Positions 491 through 11,528 of a stretch of 64,000 bases of DNA are shown here, one piece after another. The stretch is from Escherichia coli. Lineage in GTDB: Bacteria > Pseudomonadota > Gammaproteobacteria > Enterobacterales > Enterobacteriaceae. The notes beneath the pieces were generated by a model. It was not told where the DNA came from and did no database searches. It was given only the letters and a program-made list of their open reading frames with translations. The position numbers and the translations under genes were made by a program. The first letter of the stretch is position 1; each line of letters opens with the position of its first letter. The stretch lies in NCBI RefSeq assembly GCF_041248615.1, contig NZ_CP158426.1. One strand, given 5' to 3'.

Positions 491-1519
491 TTATTTCACC
501 TGTACCACCACAAACTCATCCGGGTCCGGCAACACCATCAGCGGCGCGGACTGCGTCATGGTAAATTCACGGGCGGGATCCCCTACCGTCAGCCAGTGTT
601 TCGGATAACGGGAAGAGGCCACCACACCTTCGGACAACGCCTGAGCATCCTGAATGGCACCGTAACAACGGATCCCATCTGCAGCAGTATTCCCCAGAAC
701 CAGCATGCCATCTGGAAGATAACGTTTTTCGATACCGTCTTCTGCTATATAAGACGTTTTCGCCACCACAATGGCCAGATCGCCGTAATACCCCTTGAAG
801 GACACCACTGCGCCCAGATCTTTCACTGCCGTTTCGAGTTGAGAATTTGAACCGCGACGGGTATCCAGTTTTTCGCGGAACAGCTTAAAACCATTCAGAA
901 GACGCCAGACGGTACCGTCCATAATGGCAATATTCACAAGACCGCTGGCCAGGTCGCAGTAGAGGTCAATATCATGTGTAGGATCGAACGTGTCACGATC
1001 CTGTTTTGACCACTCCTTACCACTACCCTGAGTGATGTTATTCTTCGTCGACCTGCCAAAATCGACCTCAATTTTCTCGAACTGGTCTCCTTCCATGGTG
1101 TATTTGCCATACAACACAGCATTTACCGCCTGCATTTCTTCCACCTGGACAATCGCGTGCTCTTCCTGTTTGAGGTTATCGGTAATGATACGCAGACGGC
1201 GGTAAGCCGGATCATTCAGTTGAGATGGATCTTCACCAGGAAGGCGCTCAACCGCCTGCTGGTAATTAAATTCGTGTTTCGGCTTGACGTAGCCCGGACG
1301 CAACACGCGGGTTTCACCACCACGATGACGCAGCACTTTTCCTTCAACAACCGGGGAGACATAGGCCGCCACCGGCGTTTTTCCGGTAATTTTGTCCAGC
1401 ATCACCTCTTCGGTATGGAAATTCACCGTACGGCGGAAAAACAGCTCCAGAAACAGCGCACGAAATTTAACTTTTTGTTCGGTATAACCGAGTAACTGGC
1501 GGGTCGTAAACAATCCCAT
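491..1519 (-). CDS. major capsid protein (lambda gpE family)
   Basis: 342-aa ORF, close to lambda gpE in length (my recollection) and motifs (YVKPKHE, KDLG, GDPAREFTM, SAPLM). Confidence 0.9.
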   Translation of the reverse strand: MGLFTTRQLLGYTEQKVKFRALFLELFFRRTVNFHTEEVMLDKITGKTPVAAYVSPVVEGKVLRHRGGETRVLRPGYVKPKHEFNYQQAVERLPGEDPSQLNDPAYRRLRIITDNLKQEEHAIVQVEEMQAVNAVLYGKYTMEGDQFEKIEVDFGRSTKNNITQGSGKEWSKQDRDTFDPTHDIDLYCDLASGLVNIAIMDGTVWRLLNGFKLFREKLDTRRGSNSQLETAVKDLGAVVSFKGYYGDLAIVVAKTSYIAEDGIEKRYLPDGMLVLGNTAADGIRCYGAIQDAQALSEGVVASSRYPKHWLTVGDPAREFTMTQSAPLMVLPDPDEFVVVQVK

Positions 1520-1550
1520 AAATCAGTTCCTTTCATTCAGAAATCAGTCA

Positions 1551-1566
1551 GGCCACCGCGGTGGCC
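1551..1566. repeat. perfect 16-bp palindrome GGCCACCGCGGTGGCC between D and E
   Basis: read directly in the D-E intercistronic region. Confidence 0.6.
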
Positions 1567-1576
1567 TGATAACGTG

Positions 1577-1924
1577 TTACGGCAGCGCCGCGTGACTCAG
1601 GGCACTGCCAGCAAAGGCGTTGGCCTTTTTGTGTTCATCCACACTTTCAGGCCAGTGGATTGCCTCCGTCGCAAAGGTTCCCGACTTGTAATACGTCAGC
1701 GCCGTCTCTGTGCCTTCAAGCGGCAGTACCAGTATGCCAACCGCACTACCGGCTTTCTGTCCGTCCCAGACCACCAGTTTCCCGGTGGCTTCATCCAGCA
1801 TCAGGGGCGTCAGTGCCGGTGTTGGCGAGGAAATCCCGCTGCTGCCTGTGGCGGTATGAGCCGGATCATTACCGGCAAAAATACGTACTTCCGCACGCTG
1901 TTCAGTGATGGTTTTCGTCACCAT
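1577..1924 (-). CDS. head decoration protein (lambda gpD family)
   Basis: 115-aa ORF with DPAHTAT, TPLMLD, WDG, YKSGTF motifs as in lambda gpD. Confidence 0.85.
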   Translation of the reverse strand: MVTKTITEQRAEVRIFAGNDPAHTATGSSGISSPTPALTPLMLDEATGKLVVWDGQKAGSAVGILVLPLEGTETALTYYKSGTFATEAIHWPESVDEHKKANAFAGSALSHAALP

Positions 1925-1960
1925 ATTGTAAAAACCTCCTATTGATGGTCAGCACTGACT

Positions 1961-3466
1961 TCATGGCATGGCCATGAGCATTTTCACGTCCGCATCACCG
2001 TCTGCTGACGTCTGTGCCACGCCACCCTGTACCGCTGCCGGTGAATGGTTCGCCATGAAATGTTCAAACATGGCGGTTGTGGATGCAGAGACCGGTTCTG
2101 CCTTACCTGATCCCGCAGCCAGCACAGCCCGGGCGCTCTCCACTGTCATTCCCGGGCAGGCAGCCAGCTGTTCAGCCTGCGCCTCAGCCCCTTTTGCCTC
2201 ATCCAGTGCCATGATCTGATCACGGAGTGATGGTCCGGCATCCGCCTGCGGTGAAGCAGCCAGGATCGGGCGGGCTTTTTCCACCGTCATCTCCGGCATC
2301 GCCGCCAGCGTTGCCGCCAGTTGTTCACGACCGTTCGCTTCTTCACACGCCATAATGCGATCGGCTTCACTCTGCGTGGATGCCACCGGCTGCTGCGGTG
2401 CCGCCGCGGCCAGAATCGCCCGGGCCTGTTCAACGCTCATGCCCTGTTGTCCTGCCAGCATCGTGGCAAGCTGTTCACGTCCTTTCGCTTCCTGGCATGT
2501 CAGGATCCCCATCACTCGCTGGTTCTCCTGCGCGGCGGCTTCCGTTGCAGTTAATTGCGGCATAGTGCCTCCTCTGACATTACTGTTCAGCGCCGTGGCC
2601 ATCACACTGATGGCATCCGACGCATTGATTAATTCATCCGCCAGCCCGGCCTCAATGCCGGACTGACCTTCAAAAACGGCAGCCTCTGTTCCCGTGACGG
2701 CATCAACAGACAGACCGGTATACATCGCCACTTTTTCGGCAAACATCCGGCGCGCCGCATCAATCCGCTGCTGCATGTCCTGGCGAACCTCTGCCGGCAA
2801 CGCTTCAAACTGATTGCCATCCACCTTGTGCGCCCCTGAGTAAATCAGCGTGATATCCACACCGGCCTGCGCCAGATGACCGGCATAGCTGACATGGCTC
2901 ATCATCACGCCAATGGAGCCGATACGGGATGTCTGGGTAACCAGCCGTCGGGAGCAGGCCGACGCCAGCAGCATGGCTGCAGAACAGGCCGTGTCATTGC
3001 ACAGTGCCCAGACCGGCTTCTGCTGACGGAGGCGGTAAATCATGTCAGCGCAGTCAAACGCGCCGGCGGCCTGCCCGCCCGGACTGTCAATGTCCAGCAG
3101 TACGCCCCGCACCTGGCTATCCGCCATTGCCTGCTGAAGACAGGCGACAATGCCGTCATAGCCTGTCATTCCGGAAAATGGCCGCATACCACCCAGCCGG
3201 TGCACCAGCGTGCCGGTCACCGGCAGTACAGCAATACCGTTCACCACCCGGTAAACACGGGCCGGTCGTTTACCTCCGGCCATGTACTCGTCCGTTTCAG
3301 CCAGCATTCCGGGAGCATCAAACTGTACCTGCTGTTGTGGTACCGAAAGACTTGCTGCCCCCATCTCGCGCCCGAGCGCGCAAAAGAAAACCCGCGCATA
3401 GGCGGGCTCCAGAAGCAGCGGTTCATTGAATGCTGCGGCAATAATGTGTGAAAGATTACGTCTCAC
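1961..3466 (-). CDS. head maturation protease / scaffold (lambda gpC with in-frame Nu3-like C-terminal part; ClpP/S49 peptidase fold)
   Basis: 501-aa ORF between portal and D; S49-type core; C-terminal third contains three ~45-aa tandem repeats. Confidence 0.8.
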   Translation of the reverse strand: MRRNLSHIIAAAFNEPLLLEPAYARVFFCALGREMGAASLSVPQQQVQFDAPGMLAETDEYMAGGKRPARVYRVVNGIAVLPVTGTLVHRLGGMRPFSGMTGYDGIVACLQQAMADSQVRGVLLDIDSPGGQAAGAFDCADMIYRLRQQKPVWALCNDTACSAAMLLASACSRRLVTQTSRIGSIGVMMSHVSYAGHLAQAGVDITLIYSGAHKVDGNQFEALPAEVRQDMQQRIDAARRMFAEKVAMYTGLSVDAVTGTEAAVFEGQSGIEAGLADELINASDAISVMATALNSNVRGGTMPQLTATEAAAQENQRVMGILTCQEAKGREQLATMLAGQQGMSVEQARAILAAAAPQQPVASTQSEADRIMACEEANGREQLAATLAAMPEMTVEKARPILAASPQADAGPSLRDQIMALDEAKGAEAQAEQLAACPGMTVESARAVLAAGSGKAEPVSASTTAMFEHFMANHSPAAVQGGVAQTSADGDADVKMLMAMP

Positions 3467-5048
3467 GTGGTGTTGTCTCCTCTTCCGGCCTACGACTCTC
3501 CGCTATCTGCTGCTGATACGCCTGCTCTATCCACACCGGACGTGAGAGTCCGGCTTTTTGCCGCTCAGCAGATTCCCTGACCTGCTGGCGGAAAATGTCC
3601 TGATAATCCTCGCCCATCAGCGCCAGCTCTTTCTCATACGTGCTCAGTCCGGCCTCAATGCGCATCACTGATTCCTGGACTTCCTTGAGCCCGTCAATGG
3701 CCATTCTTCCGGCACCAATCCACTCTGCCCGTGACCAGGCTGATCGCGCCTGATAAAAATCAAAACGTGCCCGTGGCGGACGAATAATCCCCCGAAGAAG
3801 TGCCTCTTCCAGCCAGCAGGAAAACATCTGCGTGGCCAGCCGGGCCGCAATAAATTTTCGCCGCCCCATAAAATAGCGCCACGACTCATTGGCGGAGGCG
3901 CGGGCACTTGAGTAACTGACCTTCGAGTAATCACGGGACAACTGTTCGTAGGAAACGCCAAGACCGGCGGCGATATACCGCAGCAGCGCCTGTTCAAGCG
4001 CAGAAAATCCATTGTCTGAATCCTGCGCAGTCTGTAGTTTCAGATCATCACCAGGGAAAAGGTGCGGAATTTTGACACCGCCCAGTGTCACGTTATTCGT
4101 GTCATACCAGCTGGAAAACTTCTCCAGAATATTAATAAGCGGATTATCCTTCTGCTCCTGTGGCGCGCCGGCGATATATTCAAAGGCCTTTTCGGTATCA
4201 AGTTCACTTTCAATCGTCGCTGCATACATCGCCTTCACTATGGCCGACTGAAGCTGTGTTGCCTGCAGGGAATCGAGCATCTTCAGCCGTTCCATGACGC
4301 TGTAAAACTGATTAGCCCCACGGGTCTGCCCGTCCTCCACCGGCTCGAAAATATGCAGCATGGCCGGACGCCCGGTGGGAAGTTCACGCGGGATCCGTTC
4401 CCATCGTCCACTACCAGAGAACGGAAAATCATCCTCACAGATATGGTACGCGACGGCACGGCCATATCGATCGACCTCCACACCGGCCCGCAGAAAACGG
4501 TTCCCCATACCGTGTCCAGGCGTGTCCACCCGTTTCGGACTCACGGCTTTAAAACGCGTACGGAATAACTGCGTGGTTTCCGTATCCCAGACCGGCTGCA
4601 CAAAGATTTCGCCGTTAAACGCATGAACGCCCACACCTTCACGGATAAATTCCGTGAACGTGCGTTTTCCTTCCACGTCGATCTCGCCAAACATCCCTTC
4701 GGCGTATTCCGACCAGGCCGCCTCCACCTCATCGACAAAGCTTTTTGCTGCGGTCTCCCGCATCCCCAGCCAGCGCCAGTTCGGACGGTAGCTGATCAGA
4801 AACATATGCCCGACAATGTGATCCTTATGCAGAGCCACCGCATTAGCCGCTATTCCGTTATTGCGCACCAGATCATCTGCCCGGGCATTCCCCAGACGCA
4901 ACGCGGGCAGCAGGGCCGCATCGGCACTCTGCGCCGGTGGCAACCACTCAGCCATTTGCCCGCCAAATCCTGCACCGCCCCCGTTGTAGCTGAGACTCTC
5001 ACGAAGCGGAACGCCGTTCACATCAATCAGGACAGGCGTTCGTTTCAT
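3456..5048 (-). CDS. portal protein (lambda gpB family)
   Basis: ORF 3456-5078; probable start MKRTPVLI at 5048, forming an ATGA overlap with the W stop; lambda gpB-like motifs (GANQFYSVME, LQSAIVKAMYAATIESELD, RMAIDGLKEVQE). Confidence 0.85.
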   Translation of the reverse strand: MKRTPVLIDVNGVPLRESLSYNGGGAGFGGQMAEWLPPAQSADAALLPALRLGNARADDLVRNNGIAANAVALHKDHIVGHMFLISYRPNWRWLGMRETAAKSFVDEVEAAWSEYAEGMFGEIDVEGKRTFTEFIREGVGVHAFNGEIFVQPVWDTETTQLFRTRFKAVSPKRVDTPGHGMGNRFLRAGVEVDRYGRAVAYHICEDDFPFSGSGRWERIPRELPTGRPAMLHIFEPVEDGQTRGANQFYSVMERLKMLDSLQATQLQSAIVKAMYAATIESELDTEKAFEYIAGAPQEQKDNPLINILEKFSSWYDTNNVTLGGVKIPHLFPGDDLKLQTAQDSDNGFSALEQALLRYIAAGLGVSYEQLSRDYSKVSYSSARASANESWRYFMGRRKFIAARLATQMFSCWLEEALLRGIIRPPRARFDFYQARSAWSRAEWIGAGRMAIDGLKEVQESVMRIEAGLSTYEKELALMGEDYQDIFRQQVRESAERQKAGLSRPVWIEQAYQQQIAESRRPEEETTPRET

Positions 5049-5251
5049 AACCTCACTCCCAGCGGACGACGGCGACACCGGGTTGTCCCCAGTACCGACT
5101 CCGCATCATTGATCGCCCGGTTAAGCTCATCCAGAGAAGCCGCCGTATATTCAATTCTGCGACCATCTTTCTGGACAGACACCACCCGTTTACCGGTTAA
5201 TAAATCAAGGCGCGCCTGACGCAGCGCCTGCAGTTCAGCGACTGTAACCAT
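5045..5251 (-). CDS. head-tail joining protein W
   Basis: 68-aa ORF, same length as lambda gpW, with GKRVVSVQKDGRR motif. Confidence 0.8.
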   Translation of the reverse strand: MVTVAELQALRQARLDLLTGKRVVSVQKDGRRIEYTAASLDELNRAINDAESVLGTTRCRRRPLGVRL

Positions 5252-7205
5252 TCACTCCTCCGGACAGCTTCGCTGCCAGTTCTTTAAGGGTTGGCCGGGT
5301 CGTCTCTTCTTCCCGGGATTTTGCCAGTACAGCCAGATCAAGCTGCCAGCGTTGCACGGACACACGTAATGCCGCGTAGGCATACACCAGGCAGTCCAGC
5401 GCTTCGTTACGCCGCTTTTTGTTATCCCACAGCAGACGCATCTTTCCTTTTTCCCACTTCTCCACAAGCTCTTCCGCGACCAGTTGCTGCGCCTCTGTCT
5501 GCGAAAAAATCTCCGGATCATCAGGAAAACGGATAGCATACGACGTGGCTTCATCCACAGGCGTGGGATCGGCTTTCATACGGGCATAGAGAATTTCTTT
5601 TGCGGTGTCCGTCCCCACTTCACACAGATACACGCCCCGCTGATTGCGGGTTTTTGGCATGGTGATCACCGGCTTGCCATAGACAGATGCGCCTTTTACC
5701 GGCAGCACCCGGAAAACACCGTGTTTTTTTGACCTCTGATAAACGATTTCGCCATCGATCCCCCCGATGTCCCAGCAGACACGGGAAATGGTCATTTCGG
5801 TTCCGTCTGCATGGCGGTATTTTTTGTTGATCGCCGCATCCACACGTAACAGCGTCTCTTCCTCATCGGGACGCCCCATAATGATGATTTTATCCACCAG
5901 AAAGGCTTCCTCTCCCGGAGCCCATCCCCAGACATACATCTCAAAACGGTTTCGCTGCGAGTCAATGCCCGCCGTCAGATAAACCACCCGGGCAGGCACC
6001 GCCGCCGTGTAACGCACAACCTTATCCATCAGCACCTGGTGATCGAGTTTTTCGCCCACAGCCTCTTCCCAGGTCTCGCCCAGCGTGGTGTTCACAAAGG
6101 TTTTCAGGCCGTTGGGATCTTTCAGTGCATCCAGCCAGTCATAGACAATCTGTACCCAGGTGGTGAACGGACTGTACGCCGTCCAGATATGGAAAGTGAT
6201 GGAGCGCGGCGGCGGAATTTCATCACCCCGGGCGCTGAAAAACATCAGGCCGTCACGGGTCCACATGCCCGTGTTTTCACAGATCCACCGCCCGTTACTC
6301 TGGTCAAGCTCAGACTGATGGATCACACAGCCATGATGCTCACAAAGGTAGAAAACACTTTCTGGCTTATTCTTCTCCCACTTAAGACCGAAAGGCGAGG
6401 CATCATCGCCAAATTTCAGATACTGCTCCTCCCCACAGTGCGGACAGGGCACATAAAAACGCATGAAGTGTGCCGACTCGTTAGCGGCTTTTTCGATCTG
6501 GCAGGAGCCTTTGATTTTAGGCGTCGAGCCGCGAATGGATTTTGGCCATACAGAGCCCTCAATACGTTTATCCCCCAGCAGGGTTGGCGAACCCTCTTTT
6601 TCAACATCCGGTTCGAACGAGGAAAGCTCGTCATAACAGACCACATCCACGGATTTTTCACGGTAGTTTTTTGCTGCCGCACCACCCAGACACCAGAACC
6701 CCACACCGGAGGAAAAACGCTTCAGGGTGAGCGTATTATCGCGGTGTTTTCTTCCGAACCATGGAGCCAGCTCCAGCAATGCAGGAACATCCCTTATCGT
6801 TGGCTCAACATGAGATTTCATAAAATCTTCAGCAGCTGAGTCCGTGGGCTGAAAAAGAAGGCTGTTGCGTGATTTATGCTCAATAAAATAAGCCTCCACT
6901 CCCAGCAACATCTTTGTATAACCAACACGGGCAGATTTAATCAGGTTAACCGTGCGAATCAGATCGTTGCCCATACAGTTCATGATGCCAACCTGAAACG
7001 GCAGTGTTTCCCATCGCCCCGGGGTATAAGACGACTCTTTAGGAAGGTAATAATGTTTATTGGCCCACTGAACTGTCGTCAGTGGAACAGGAATAATGAG
7101 AGATAAAAGCCCTGTAGCTATCGCACCGGCTGCATTAGCTGCCTTCTGCGCGTCTGAAATCATCGATCCACCCGCCCACGTTTTCACCGGCCTTAGCTGC
7201 AACAT
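5235..7205 (-). CDS. terminase large subunit (lambda gpA family)
   Basis: 656-aa ORF; motifs [43 protein letters not shown] as in lambda gpA. Confidence 0.9.
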
Positions 7206-7683
7206 TGGAGGCTTTCGCGATTTCAGTTTTCACCACATCAAGGTGTGATGGTGAAATGTCCGGATATTTACGCTGTAATGTCAACGGCACACGCACAAGT
7301 ATCCCCGAAATCTCCTGTGCCACACGTTGCAGAATGAAGGTAAACAGTTCAGTTTCCAGCACTACTCCGTCTTCACGGGCATTTTTCAGTTCCTGCGCAT
7401 CTGCCTGCGCTTTTGTGAGCCGGTAGCGTTCATAGTCAATGGTGCCGGGTTGTAAATCTGACTCCGCTGCCGCACGCAAATCGTCCAGTTCTTTGCGGAG
7501 CTTTTCGTTTTCGATATCAGTTTCCCTCTGCGCATACCACTGAATTGCCATGGCAGTATCAAATACAGATTCAATGCCCTTACTACCTTTGGAGGCGCAA
7601 GGGAGTCCCTGAGACTGCCAGCGTTCAATCGTCCGCGGGTCCACGTTGAAAATTTCGGCAAGCCTCTTTTTATTAACCTTCAT
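7135..7683 (-). CDS. terminase small subunit (lambda Nu1 family)
   Basis: 182-aa ORF; N-terminal [12 protein letters not shown]... and [21 protein letters not shown] motifs as in lambda Nu1; 3' end overlaps A. Confidence 0.9.
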
Positions 7684-7799
7684 GAAAACAACCCATTATC
7701 AAATACAAGGCCCGACATGAAAACGCCAGAAAAAGGCATTTTCGGACACTTTCATGTCGGACCTTTACGGATGCAATATTAAAAAAAACAAAAAGTTAT

Positions 7800-7880
7800 A
7801 TTCGAGAAGTACCGACACGATTTTCCCTGAAAAATTTTCATAAATAGTGAAAAACCGCGAGGTCGCCGCCCCGTAACCTG
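7800..7880 (-). other. cos site (cosN core about 7860-7871 plus flanking terminase-binding region)
   Basis: minus strand reads GGGGCGGCGACCTCGCGGTTTTTCACTATTTATGAAAATTTTTCAGG, near-identical to the lambda cos sequence as I recall it; lies upstream of Nu1. Confidence 0.75.
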
Positions 7881-8019
7881 TTGGATCGACGGAAAGGACC
7901 CGAAAACGAGAATAATTATCACTTACAGCAAGAATCGAATCTGATCTATTATGGTGCTTGCTATTATGTGCCGGCACAAGTGCGTCGTTTACCGTCATTT
8001 CACACAGAGGCATCATCAA

Positions 8020-8271
8020 ATGAAAATCAGAAATATTCTCGCTATCTCCCTTGCGACATCATCCTTCAGTTGCCTGGCATTTAAATCCTCGCCCAATGTG
8101 CTACCAGGACCAACGAATCAACTAACTGCGGTAGAAAGTAAAATTATCGGACATTTTTATGCCCCACACAGTACATTACCCGGAACAACCATCACAGGGA
8201 CATGTGACGCCTCCCCCGTCCCGGGATGCACCTGTCCGTTTTGTACTATGCTGCGTAGCCAAAACCGATAA
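8020..8271 (+). CDS. hypothetical small secreted protein with Cys-rich C-terminus
   Basis: internal start MKIRNILAISLATSSFSCLA looks like a signal peptide; C-terminus TGTCDASPVPGCTCPFC; no family recognised; may be non-coding. Confidence 0.3.
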   Translation: MKIRNILAISLATSSFSCLAFKSSPNVLPGPTNQLTAVESKIIGHFYAPHSTLPGTTITGTCDASPVPGCTCPFCTMLRSQNR

Positions 8272-8634
8272 CATCCGCATTTACCTGGTATTCCATGATG
8301 AGTTCACGCAGCGACTGATAGAGGAAGGAAAGATGGTTAGTAAAAGCAAGGCGCATTGCCGCCGCATGCTGCAGGCATTGCAACAGACGAGAGCAGGTAT
8401 TTTTGACCAGTTGGAAAACTGCCAGCATACTTTGCCCGAGTATATCGCCATCTCATCGGAAACCAGTGCAACTCTTATTCATCGGGTTCCACCAGAGAAA
8501 AAGAAGAAATGAACAGTGAGGCGTTGTGTGGCATACAACGCCTTCTTCCATCATTCCTCGTCAGCCATGACAAAAATATAACCGCTGGCTCTTTCATTTT
8601 TCTCCTGCTTCCAGCCCCTCTCTACCTGGAAGCA

Positions 8635-8961
8635 TCAAGGACGTGACGGCGTAAAGATAAATTGTCTCTTCACTCCCTGACAGGGGCGATTCTTTTCAAA
8701 TCGCCATTTCGCCATGGCCTTCACCACTTCATCACGAAACAAATTATGAGGCTCTGAGCGGAGAAAAACGATCCGTGTCACAGTCCCATCAGCACCAATA
8801 TCGAACTTAACCTCAACCAGCCCCTTGATATAATTTGCTGCAGCATATTCCGGATATCGTGGATACACCGTCACTAATTGCCGGGGCTCATCAGCTTTTT
8901 GCTGCGAGCATCCCACTGCCAGGACAGATAACAGAAAAAGTAGTAAAAGGCGTCTTTTCAT
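8635..8961 (-). CDS. lipoprotein consisting of a TonB C-terminal-domain-like fold
   Basis: start MKRRLLLLFLLSVLAVGCSQQ (signal peptide plus lipobox, Ser at +2); remainder matches the TonB C-terminal domain pattern (YP..A....I.G.V.VKFD...DG.V.......S.P.N.F..EV..AM..WRFE) of E. coli TonB as I recall it. Confidence 0.55.
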   Translation of the reverse strand: MKRRLLLLFLLSVLAVGCSQQKADEPRQLVTVYPRYPEYAAANYIKGLVEVKFDIGADGTVTRIVFLRSEPHNLFRDEVVKAMAKWRFEKNRPCQGVKRQFIFTPSRP

Positions 8962-9444
8962 TTTTATTCCTACGGGTCTTATTCTGACAATATATCCTGT
9001 GTTCCAGACTGCCACATCACCACATCCTGTGCCATTATCTGACTCACATTACATACATCGCATCGGGATACAGTAGTAGCACTTTCTGTAATACAGCTTC
9101 CTGTTTCTTCCACCATCGCACCGGGATAAACCCGCGAATCATTAACGCGGTAAAAACCCGGTGTGCATCGTTTTTAATTATTCCCGCACACTCACGCAGA
9201 AGGAATTCCCCGTCGGGCTACGGTCATGGTTAATGCGGGAATACGGCGACGATACAGCGCAGCTAAAAGGGTAATGGACGGATAGACCGGTTTATTTCAT
9301 TCCACAGGATTCTGAGTGTCCCCAACTTCCTCCAATAGTCTGAGCCCACCTGTGTAGTTTTAATTTTCATCAATCCATTTAACTATCGTTTAATTTTCTA
9401 CACATACGATTCTGCGAACTTCAAAAAGCATCGGGAATAACACC

Positions 9445-9738
9445 ATGAAAAAAATGCTACTCGCTACTGCGCTGGCCCTGCTTATTACAGGATGTGCTCA
9501 ACAGACGTTTACTGTTCAAAACAAACCGGCAGCAGTAGCACCAAAGGAAACCATCACCCATCATTTCTTCGTTTCTGGAATTGGGCAGAAGAAAACTGTC
9601 GATGCAGCCAAAATTTGTGGCGGCGCAGAAAATGTTGTTAAAACAGAAACCCAGCAAACATTCGTAAATGGATTGCTCGGTTTTATTACTTTAGGCATTT
9701 ATACTCCGCTGGAAGCGCGTGTGTATTGCTCACAATAA
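9445..9738 (+). CDS. bor: Bor lipoprotein (serum-resistance family)
   Basis: 97-aa ORF MKKMLLATALALLITGCAQQ..., matches lambda Bor as I recall it. Confidence 0.9.
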   Translation: MKKMLLATALALLITGCAQQTFTVQNKPAAVAPKETITHHFFVSGIGQKKTVDAAKICGGAENVVKTETQQTFVNGLLGFITLGIYTPLEARVYCSQ

Positions 9739-9769
9739 TTGCATGAGTTGCCCATCGATATGGGCAACT

Positions 9770-10231
9770 CTATCTGCACTGCTCATTAATATACTTCTGG
9801 GTTCCTTCCAGTTGTTTTTGCATAGTGATCAGCCTCTCTCTGAGGGTGAAATAATCCCGTTCAGCGGTGTCTGCCAGTCGGGGGGAGGCTGCATTATCCA
9901 CGCCGGAGGCGGTGGTGGCTTCACGCACTGACTGACAGACTGCTTTGATGTGCAACCGACGACGACCAGCGGCAACATCATCACGCAGAGCATCATTTTC
10001 AGCTTTAGCATCAGCTAACTCCTTCGTGTATTTTGCATCGAGCGCAGCAACATCACGCTGACGCATCTGCATGTCAGTAATTGCCGCGTTCGCCAGCTTC
10101 AGTTCTCTGGCATTTTTGTCGCGCTGGGCTTTGTAGGTAATGGCGTTATCACGGTAATGATTAACAGCCCATGACAGGCAGACGATGATGCAGATAACCA
10201 GAGCGGAGATAATCGCGGTGACTCTGCTCAT
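9770..10231 (-). CDS. Rz: spanin inner-membrane subunit Rz
   Basis: ORF 9770-10243; start [15 protein letters not shown] at 10231 gives 153 aa, matching lambda Rz. Confidence 0.9.
9829..10011 (-). CDS. Rz1: spanin outer-membrane lipoprotein subunit Rz1 (embedded in Rz, +1 frame)
   Basis: 60-aa ORF with lipobox VVVGC and proline-rich stretch, embedded in Rz. Confidence 0.85.
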
Positions 10232-10725
10232 TGCTGACCCCACAAACAGATTTCACGCTCAATCTCACGACGAGTCATGAGACCTTTCCATTGCTTACCG
10301 CCAGCATATGTCCAGCGACGTAGCTGATCACATGCGCCTTTGATATCGCCCTGGTTTATTTTGCGAAGAAGCGTCGATGTTCTGAAATTGCCAGCACCCA
10401 CGTTGTAAACGAATGAGTAAAGAGCGCCGCGCATTGTTTCCGGTATATCGACTTTGATGTACGGGTTAATTTGTCTGGCGACCGTGGCAAGGTCTTTATT
10501 CAGGAGGGCTTTGCATTCTGCTTTGGTATACGTTTTACCGAGCATGATGTCTTTTCCTGTATGCCCGTGACATACAGTCCATACACCAACAATATCTTTG
10601 TATGGTATGTAGCTGACACCTTCCAGACCATCGTTACCACTTGGGCCAGTGATTAACACTGATGCTATAGCAATTGCTCCGCCACCAATAGCAGCAGCAA
10701 CGGCTTTTCGTAATGATGGAGGCAT
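10228..10725 (-). CDS. SAR endolysin (phage 21 R21 type, T4-lysozyme fold)
   Basis: 165-aa [30 protein letters not shown]... (signal-anchor-release N-terminus) with lysozyme motifs, matching phage 21 R as I recall it. Confidence 0.9.
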
Positions 10726-10940
10726 TATTCACCTCTCGCAGCCTTGCGCTTATCTTCTTTAATCTTGAAATAAAGGTTTGTCAGGTACGTCAGCAGGCCA
10801 AATACCAGGCTACCCAGCACACCTATTGCCGCCCACTGTGAGGGCGTGACTTTATCGAGCAACTGTAAAAACCAGTACCCGGCACTACCTGCTGAGGTAC
10901 CATAGGCGACACCCGTTGTTAACTTATCCATGGATTTCAT
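10725..10940 (-). CDS. pinholin (phage 21 S21 type)
   Basis: 71-aa ORF with two TM segments and charged C-terminus, directly upstream of the SAR endolysin. Confidence 0.85.
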
Positions 10941-11528
10941 AACCCCACCTCGCAGACAAAGCGGGTGTAAATTAAGGGGATACTACGTATCGCAATAAAG
11001 GCAGAAACGTAACAGATTCGGAGTCAGTGAATAACTCAGGTATTGGGTTATCAGCTAATATCGAGACTCAAAAAATGGAAAAACCCGCTCGACGGCGGGT
11101 TTAAGCTGTGTGACGAAGTAACCACTCTTAACAGCATAACCAATTTTTTACGTACGTAAACTACTAAATGATATTTGTGAGAATGCCACCGAGTGTTCAA
11201 AACACCACCACAAATGCATAAGAAAACTTCAACAAATAACCAGTTAATAATTTCCGATGTTATTTTTAGTTTGTTTAAATTAAGCTAAAGAATTATAGAG
11301 CACTTATAAATAAGTGCCATTAATATAAATTAGCTAATAGATTTATTTTTGTTCAGACAAGAGCCATGAATAGGATTAGATAGAAAAGGTTCAGATAAAA
11401 ATAGAGATCTACTTCACAAATTAAATGAGAAACTAAAACTTACATCTTGAAATAATCACATTGATTAGATGAATATTTATCGCGCAGTGACATCATTTTT
11501 TAATAATAGTTCAAAAAAAGGGCGTACA

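Follow-up and report, generated by a model that had tools for sequence, protein, structure and literature searches.

The C-terminal portion of the lambda C homologue in our window, a 64,000-nucleotide stretch of Escherichia coli DNA (assembly GCF_041248615.1, contig NZ_CP158426.1), carries three tandem repeats, which GenBank already annotates in phage 21 gene 5/6 as Tri boxes. We favor, with a probability of roughly 60%, a joint reading in which the Tri boxes are orthologous modules of Nu3-type scaffolds that act as protein-contact elements and make the scaffold multivalent, the triplication having come from old recombination and having been kept by purifying selection. What this analysis usefully adds to the existing annotation is the ancestral single-copy module, its range of one to four copies, the purifying selection on each copy, the prediction of three helices, and the absence of a curated domain model.

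Repeats in a phage 21-type head gene

In the left 7.2 kb of the window lies a lambda-type head operon, encoded on the minus strand. Along that strand its genes run A, W, B, C, D-like, E-like, and the C homologue follows the portal gene and precedes those for the decoration and major capsid proteins (Table 1). The prophage of E. coli Nissle 1917, which is 100% identical, is annotated with the identical head gene order. Pfam and NCBIfam both place an S49 (SppA-like) peptidase domain in the N-terminal part of the gene 5 product. The serine in 'CSAA' and the lysine in 'HKVDGN' of this product align with lambda gpC, and we take these two residues to be catalytic. The DNA of the gene matches that of phage 21 gene 5 at 99.9% identity, with one real amino acid difference, A373V, and the gene and its region are 100% identical in phages ev017 and PhiR57_1 as well as in the Nissle 1917 prophage. 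The window gene is a prophage allele of phage 21 gene 5. Of 5,426 complete E. coli genomes, 1,869 carry the region, some of them at as many as five places. With a 660-nt query, coverage at the best place reached 80% or more in 1,863 of these carriers.

The first-pass annotation had assigned the repeats to a scaffold-like or Nu3-like region, and they do lie downstream of the S49 domain and inside the nested in-frame gene 6. The repeat region would be read twice, once in the gene 5 protease-scaffold product and once as the bulk of the 200-aa gp6. A start at the internal Met302 giving gp6 as a separate scaffold protein is plausible from the sequence. Homologues from E. coli and Salmonella retain this methionine, and many of them read 'MP(Q/E)LTA' from it. 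In OL657228.1, a later record that covers the whole phage 21 genome, the products bear the names 'capsid protease/scaffolding protein' and 'scaffolding protein', respectively. In the two RefSeq records inspected, those of Nissle 1917 and E. coli SCU-482, the nested scaffold gene is not called.

Table 1. Head operon genes in the window and features of the gene 5 product (aa numbering of the 501-aa product).
Feature	Position	Strand	Basis
Terminase large subunit gene	5235-7205	-	ORF list
W-like gene	5045-5251	-	ORF list
Portal gene	3456-5078	-	ORF list
Gene 5 / lambda C homologue, fusion of S49 prohead protease and scaffold region	1961..3466	-	501 aa, GTG start
Peptidase_S49 domain, aa 146-293	2588..3031	-	Pfam PF01343 E=3.7e-35; NCBIfam SppA_dom (TIGR00706) E=1e-31
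GGAGG Shine-Dalgarno, 4 nt 5' of internal in-frame ATG	2568..2572	-	GTCAGAGGAGGCACTATG; RBS in M81255.1 and OL657228.1
Nested gene 6, Nu3 homologue, 200 aa from Met302, pI 4.6	1961..2563	-	CDS in M81255.1 and OL657228.1
Repeat unit 1, aa 316-359	2390..2521	-	HMM envelope; contains 'Tri1 box' 2393-2496
Repeat unit 2, aa 366-408	2243..2371	-	HMM envelope; contains 'Tri box' 2246-2356
Repeat unit 3, aa 413-456	2099..2230	-	HMM envelope; contains 'Tri3 box' 2102-2215
Predicted post-repeat helix, aa 461-474, STTAMFEHFMANHS	2045..2086	-	AlphaFold, both models; homologous to lambda TALDRLMQ
Rapidly evolving C-terminal tail, aa 475-501, with predicted short helix/motif D..(L/M)LM..P at its end	1964..2044	-	Motif in homologues
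D/shp-like decoration gene	1577-1924	-	ORF list
E-like major capsid gene	491-1519	-	ORF list

On the 501-aa product, an HMM of the unit finds exactly three full units of about 44 aa, each scoring 79-81 bits against the unit profile. In a self dot-plot of the protein (BLOSUM62, 20-aa windows), offsets of 50, 47, and 97 score 62, 57, and 54, while 200 shuffles give a mean of 30.2 (sd 4.0) and a maximum of 44. Four independent single-copy profiles from PHROG, all of scaffold or protease proteins (8399, 8940, 17040, and 16406), each match the C-terminal 200 aa three times. With the dot-plot far above the shuffles and three units found by the HMM, the three tandem repeats of ~45 aa seen in the gene C product at first pass are borne out; the span of 2090-2560 given for them is correct, and the residue consensus proposed matches our alignment of the units.

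Pairs of units share 44-53% identity in protein and 52-59% in DNA, compared with 28 ± 4% DNA identity for random in-frame segment pairs. Periodicity had been claimed for the DNA as well, and this holds only weakly, so that the internal repetition is significant in the protein and faint in the nucleotides. The base autocorrelation has a peak of 0.42 at lag 150, and there is one in-register DNA repeat family, a single 12-nt stretch with spacing 153/150, but Tandem Repeats Finder reported no repeat on 1900-3500, because the copies are too diverged. Between units, first and second codon positions are 58-72% identical and third positions 35-40%; the similarity is therefore carried by the protein. 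Residues that are identical between units share a codon in under half of cases. The faint DNA signal and the low third-position identity indicate an old duplication kept at the protein level, as opposed to a recent repeat in the DNA or an element acting at the DNA level.

Within gene 6, record M81255.1 ('Bacteriophage 21 head gene operon') has three repeat_region features, 'Tri1 box', 'Tri box', and 'Tri3 box', all of them annotated 'function unknown; putative'. These boxes, of about 35-38 codons, map inside the three HMM units at the annotated positions. The record presumably stems from the 1993 study in which Smith and Feiss analyzed the head gene sequences of phage 21. We found no mention of the Tri boxes or of the EAKGRE motif in the literature searched.

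Conservation and copy number of the unit

Lambda gpC (NC_001416, C at 4418-5737 with nu3 nested in it) is 439 aa long and has a single unit at aa 359-402. The window product had been put at about 60 residues longer than gpC, and the difference is 62. Both are fusions of an S49 protease and a scaffold, occupy the identical operon position B-C/Nu3-D-E, and keep the architecture of an internal methionine behind a strong Shine-Dalgarno, the unit, the next helix, and a tail. They differ ahead of the unit, where lambda has about 50 polar residues before its one unit, whereas the window gene has 14 residues before three. The alignment with lambda gpC is good over the protease and continues over one unit, the next helix (TALDRLMQ in lambda, TAMFEHFM in the window gene), and, loosely, the C-terminal end. 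The flank preceding phage 21 unit 1 matches that of the lambda unit (AQENQRVMGIL vs AAENSRIMGIL), and the C-terminal flank of phage 21 unit 3 matches that of the lambda unit. Because both outer flanks match lambda, the two extra units were probably inserted internally, as unequal in-frame recombination predicts. Repeat expansion, as suggested at first pass, is an apt description of three units in the phage 21 type against one in lambda gpC. Phage 21 itself (M81255.1, OL657228.1) has the same nested start, ribosome-binding site, and three repeats as the window gene, with nothing of substance different. STM2605 of Gifsy-1 and related C homologues from Salmonella prophages likewise have three units, in the same order and positionally orthologous. 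The scaffold part of Gifsy-1 is about 54% identical to that of the window, and its tail is different and longer; over aa 457-501, identity to Gifsy-1 is 31%.

A unit profile of 44 columns from 31 units, searched against the representatives of 1.84 billion clusters made at 50% identity, matched 1,511 of them at E<=0.001, 140 of them at E<=1e-10. A separate protein search returned mostly 'partial' proteins at contig ends; from that search, copy numbers were taken just from proteins intact at the C-terminus and in the flanks. Among the 144 new matches within the 150 best listed of the 1,511, the unit is present once in 133, twice in 9, and three times in 2. Summed scores rank multi-copy proteins higher, and multi-copy forms should therefore be rarer still overall. 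Some apparently stand-alone scaffold proteins of about 130 aa were also seen, on contigs of 0.9-2.2 kb that end just upstream. Among the best listed, proteins of 380 aa or more carry their last unit at a median distance of about 50 aa from the C-terminus. The profile is marked by I6, E11, A12, K13, G14, R15, E16, A19, L22, A23, M28, A33, and L37, with E11, K13, G14, R15, and E16 almost invariant across units; in the window, unit 2 has N at K13 and unit 3 has A at R15. Distant members share a cassette of GpA terminase, Phage_portal_2, S49 plus unit, HDPD, and Phage_cap_E. In general, the protease is followed by a variable linker, often acidic and of low complexity, and then by the unit, a single helix, and a tail that also varies. 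On these profile comparisons, Nu3-type scaffolds have the unit as their conserved core, and no other part of the scaffold region is strongly conserved. Pfam and NCBIfam gave nothing significant on the C-terminal 200 aa downstream of the S49 domain. Searches of PDB sequences with gp6 and the unit profile gave no significant match either, the best being a ribosomal protein (E=1.3) and NusA HhH repeats (E~0.8).

In the E. coli/Salmonella clade, units at the same position are 75-100% identical and neighboring units 50-64%. Compared with Gifsy-1, pN per unit is 0.15-0.26 and pS 0.67-0.75, which is saturated. The dN/dS values against Gifsy-1 are rough, given small samples and saturated dS. The units overall come to about 0.10 (unit 1 about 0.06, unit 3 about 0.20), next to 0.13 for the protease domain, 0.51 for aa 457-501 (the post-repeat helix and tail), and 1.29 for the linker of 6 aa that joins unit 1 to unit 2. 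As far as such comparisons go, the triplication is old and each unit is under purifying selection.

Related prophages range from one to four units. An E. coli allele representing a cluster of 48 sequences (P0032) has four, of which units 2-4 are 83-92% identical and hence probably recent gains. In a distant head module (P0138) the unit has been duplicated independently. Two alleles (P0018 and P0022) are clean two-unit variants, and the prophage allele in the complete genome of E. coli SCU-482 lacks 19 aa in the middle of unit 2. Taken together, these homologues indicate that copy number runs from one to four via several independent duplications, with losses as well. Given the SCU-482 deletion and the two-copy variants, three intact units may not be strictly required. 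Lambda with one copy and phage 21 with three both have homologous D/E-type heads, so copy number is not obviously a determinant of capsid type.

Predicted structure and comparison with other scaffolds

The AlphaFold2 model of gp6, from a 14-sequence alignment, has three similar blocks of three short helices each (pLDDT ~72-82), with one further helix (residues 160-173) and then a disordered tail after them. The linkers are of low confidence and the pTM is 0.28; thus no fixed arrangement between units is predicted. A second model, of the last unit plus tail from an 84-sequence alignment, has the same three unit helices with pLDDT ~80, the post-unit helix at residues 54-67, and a short helix near the C-terminal end at residues 85-90. 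Each unit is therefore predicted to be a small three-helix bundle on flexible linkers. It may be marginally stable, or fold on binding. The title of a 2011 J Mol Biol paper terms lambda gpNu3 'intrinsically disordered', and to the extent that a title can be leaned on, the unit may not fold stably alone. Foldseek searches of the PDB with the three-unit model gave only meaningless matches (E>=1), which is expected for units without a fixed mutual orientation. Against BFVD, only S49 or prohead-protease proteins were returned, with non-significant E-values. Matches to the bundles of UBA, CUE, and RuvA domain III score below the level of homology, at 5-22% identity, and are a resemblance of fold only.

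Nested genes for protease and scaffold with a common C-terminus, by which the protease is built into the procapsid, are found in herpesviruses (UL26/UL26.5) and in P2 (gpO). In P22, the helix-turn-helix of gp8 is a small helical C-terminal element that makes coat contacts. The likeness of these systems to phage 21 is one of logic, with no match in sequence or fold. The P22 element is a two-helix hairpin, whereas the Tri-box unit is predicted to have three helices. To our knowledge, tandem repetition of the contact element is not a feature of the UL26/UL26.5, gpO, or gp8 systems.

Possible roles of the repeated unit

In our preferred reading, the three-helix units would be strung like beads on Pro/Ala/Gln-rich flexible linkers, with one helix and a fast-evolving tail after them. 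We infer that the unit is a protein-protein contact element, so that three units rather than one would make each scaffold chain multivalent. The protease has the units in common with the scaffold and would on that account assemble together with the scaffold core inside the prohead. The variable C-terminal tail would be the better candidate for capsid-protein specificity. The triplication would have arisen by old in-frame unequal recombination and been retained by purifying selection, with gains and losses continuing. In lambda, an interaction map lists Nu3-Nu3, C-Nu3, and Nu3-E interactions, the last from two-hybrid data, and Nu3 is degraded by C (PMC3224144). By analogy, these interactions would fit a unit making homotypic, protease, or capsid contacts. 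That repeat copy number tunes capsid assembly, as the first-pass annotation proposed, is conjecture. We are likewise doubtful of the broader proposal that the unit is an uncurated, widespread interaction domain of three helices that marks Nu3-type scaffolds and whose copy number, from one to four and repeatedly altered through in-frame recombination, is an adaptive control of valency affecting the fidelity or rate of assembly.

Another possibility is that each Tri box is a capsid-protein-binding domain, an analogue of the P22 helix-turn-helix, which bridges up to three gp7 (gpE-like) subunits and drives shell polymerization. The unit is always accompanied by a Phage_cap_E major capsid gene, and the lambda Nu3-E interaction agrees with a capsid contact. 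The unit also lies near the C-terminus, as do the coat-binding elements of other scaffolds. In P22, phi29, 80alpha, and herpesviruses, these elements are near the scaffold C-terminus, and contact is made by the extreme C-terminus. However, the extreme C-terminus here belongs to a separate, fast-evolving region (31% identity and dN/dS ~0.5 over aa 457-501), and the conservation of the unit far exceeds what would be expected of a partner-specific contact; on balance, we think this role rather unlikely. The extra units could also be a nearly neutral spacer that replaces the disordered segment of about 50 aa at the N-terminus of lambda Nu3, so that length or volume matters and not the number of binding sites. 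Such an exchange would suit the layout after the internal methionine, where phage 21 has its short lead and two more units in place of the longer lambda segment. Long acidic low-complexity linkers occupy that position in other family members, and natural deletion variants exist. What makes a spacer improbable is that purifying selection on each unit matches that on the protease domain, unlike the linker (1.29) or aa 457-501 (0.51), that positional orthology is retained across E. coli and Salmonella phages, and that full length is kept in nearly all E. coli genomes with the gene (1,863 of 1,869).

The S49 protease might also dock on the units or cut them, so that removal of the scaffold is efficient, with the EAKGRE turn as recognition element. 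Such a role would accord with their being seen only alongside an S49 prohead protease, with the C-Nu3 interaction and degradation of Nu3 by C in lambda, and with the near invariance of the five residues from E11 to E16 named above (all but A12). Yet in the phage 21 clade unit 3 reads KGAE and unit 2 NGRE, both are still constrained, and the conserved turn can be explained as the helix-helix turn of the predicted bundle; we consider this role quite improbable. The periodicity could finally reflect a DNA-level element, such as CII-site matches, or a helix-hairpin-helix DNA-binding motif in the protein. OL657228.1 annotates two 'CII binding site' pattern matches here, on the opposite strand, and unit 3 has a weak Pfam HHH match (E=0.095), alongside the NusA acidic-repeat matches (E~0.8). 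Against both stand the poor identity at third codon positions and the differing codons of shared residues, the lack of any Rfam match, an HHH score of 13.0 bits where the cut-off is 24, the absence of the motif glycines from unit 2, and the strongly acidic character of gp6 (computed pI 4.6, net charge -11), and we regard either form of this explanation as extremely improbable. A helix-hairpin-helix or DNA-binding assignment (PF00633) was rejected on score, which is below the gathering threshold and on unit 3 only, on charge, and on fold.

As a discovery, the repeats themselves carry little weight, having been annotated since the phage 21 head operon was deposited. The gene that encodes them turns up in roughly one in three complete E. 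coli genomes. They also point to two gaps, one in the domain libraries, where the unit is without a Pfam or NCBIfam model, and one in genome annotation, where the nested scaffold gene goes uncalled in the Nissle 1917 and SCU-482 RefSeq records. Head modules that are otherwise homologous offer a natural series of 1 (lambda), 2, 2.5, 3 (phage 21, Gifsy-1), and 4 units, a ready set for probing the role of the sole conserved part of these scaffolds.

Natural variation in repeat number

The number of roughly 44-residue units in the scaffold region of gene 5, the phage 21 counterpart of lambda C, varies in nature. The variant set considered for length of the repeat region consists of the locus from E. 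coli SCU-482, a complete genome, and four homologous proteins from the protein search (P0018, P0022, P0016 and P0032). SCU-482 carries a 19-aa in-frame deletion within unit 2, and clean two-unit alleles occur naturally among the variants. An allele with four units is also found in nature, its last three units being 83-92% identical. A PDB search with the unit returned 9hqv_Un, a chain of 24 residues that bears no label other than 'Chain Un'. It has the string AKGREALAEK, which matches the turn that is best conserved in the unit, at a non-significant E of 0.4.

Distribution and database records

Among complete genomes of E. coli, 1,869 of 5,426 have the gene 5/6 region, and a single genome can have it in up to five places. 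RefSeq labels the loci in E. coli Nissle 1917 and SCU-482 'S49 family peptidase' only, and neither record, on inspection, has a call for the nested scaffold gene. The protein search also returned hundreds of entries named 'S49 family peptidase, partial' (for example, P0010, P0013-P0015, P0069 and P0080) that terminate inside or beside the repeat region and come from contigs of 0.4-2 kb. Draft assemblies appear to be broken at the repeat region, plausibly because several related prophages within one genome have this gene in common. Across window positions 1-64000, no tRNA or tmRNA genes were found, nor any Rfam family at the gathering threshold.

Start and annotated sites of the nested scaffold gene

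Records conflict on where the nested gene begins. In lambda (NC_001416, region 4300-6200), RefSeq places the nu3 start at 5132, giving 201 aa, with a weak Shine-Dalgarno upstream, whereas Met309, at 5342, is the residue homologous to the Met that starts gene 6 in phage 21. The codon for Met309 is preceded by AGGAGG, and the product predicted from it has 131 aa (13.4 kDa).

The complete phage 21 genome, OL657228.1, annotates two CII sites within gene 6, both solely from the pattern ttgynnnnnnttgy. One of them coincides in part with the codons for the conserved 'EQLA' in unit 2. Both are probably chance matches to the pattern.

Annotated CII sites and loci in other records
Feature	Record	Locus	Window position	Strand	Basis
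'transcription factor CII' site	OL657228.1	2409-2422	~2545-2558	opposite gene 6	pattern match
'transcription factor CII' site	OL657228.1	2643-2656	~2311-2324	opposite gene 6	pattern match
Nissle 1917 locus	NZ_CP022686.1	4805898-4807403
SCU-482 locus	NZ_CP053247.1	90522-91970
Locus of the distant two-unit member	Ga0467035_0002242	1268-11410

A distant two-unit member

A distant member of the family, with two units, lies on a JGI metagenome contig, where it is part of a head cassette of lambda type (GpA terminase, portal_2, S49, HDPD and cap_E). Directly adjoining this cassette are baseplate genes of myovirus type (Phage_base_V, GPW_gp25 and Baseplate_J). The arrangement is a mosaic of a lambda-like head and a contractile-tail module.
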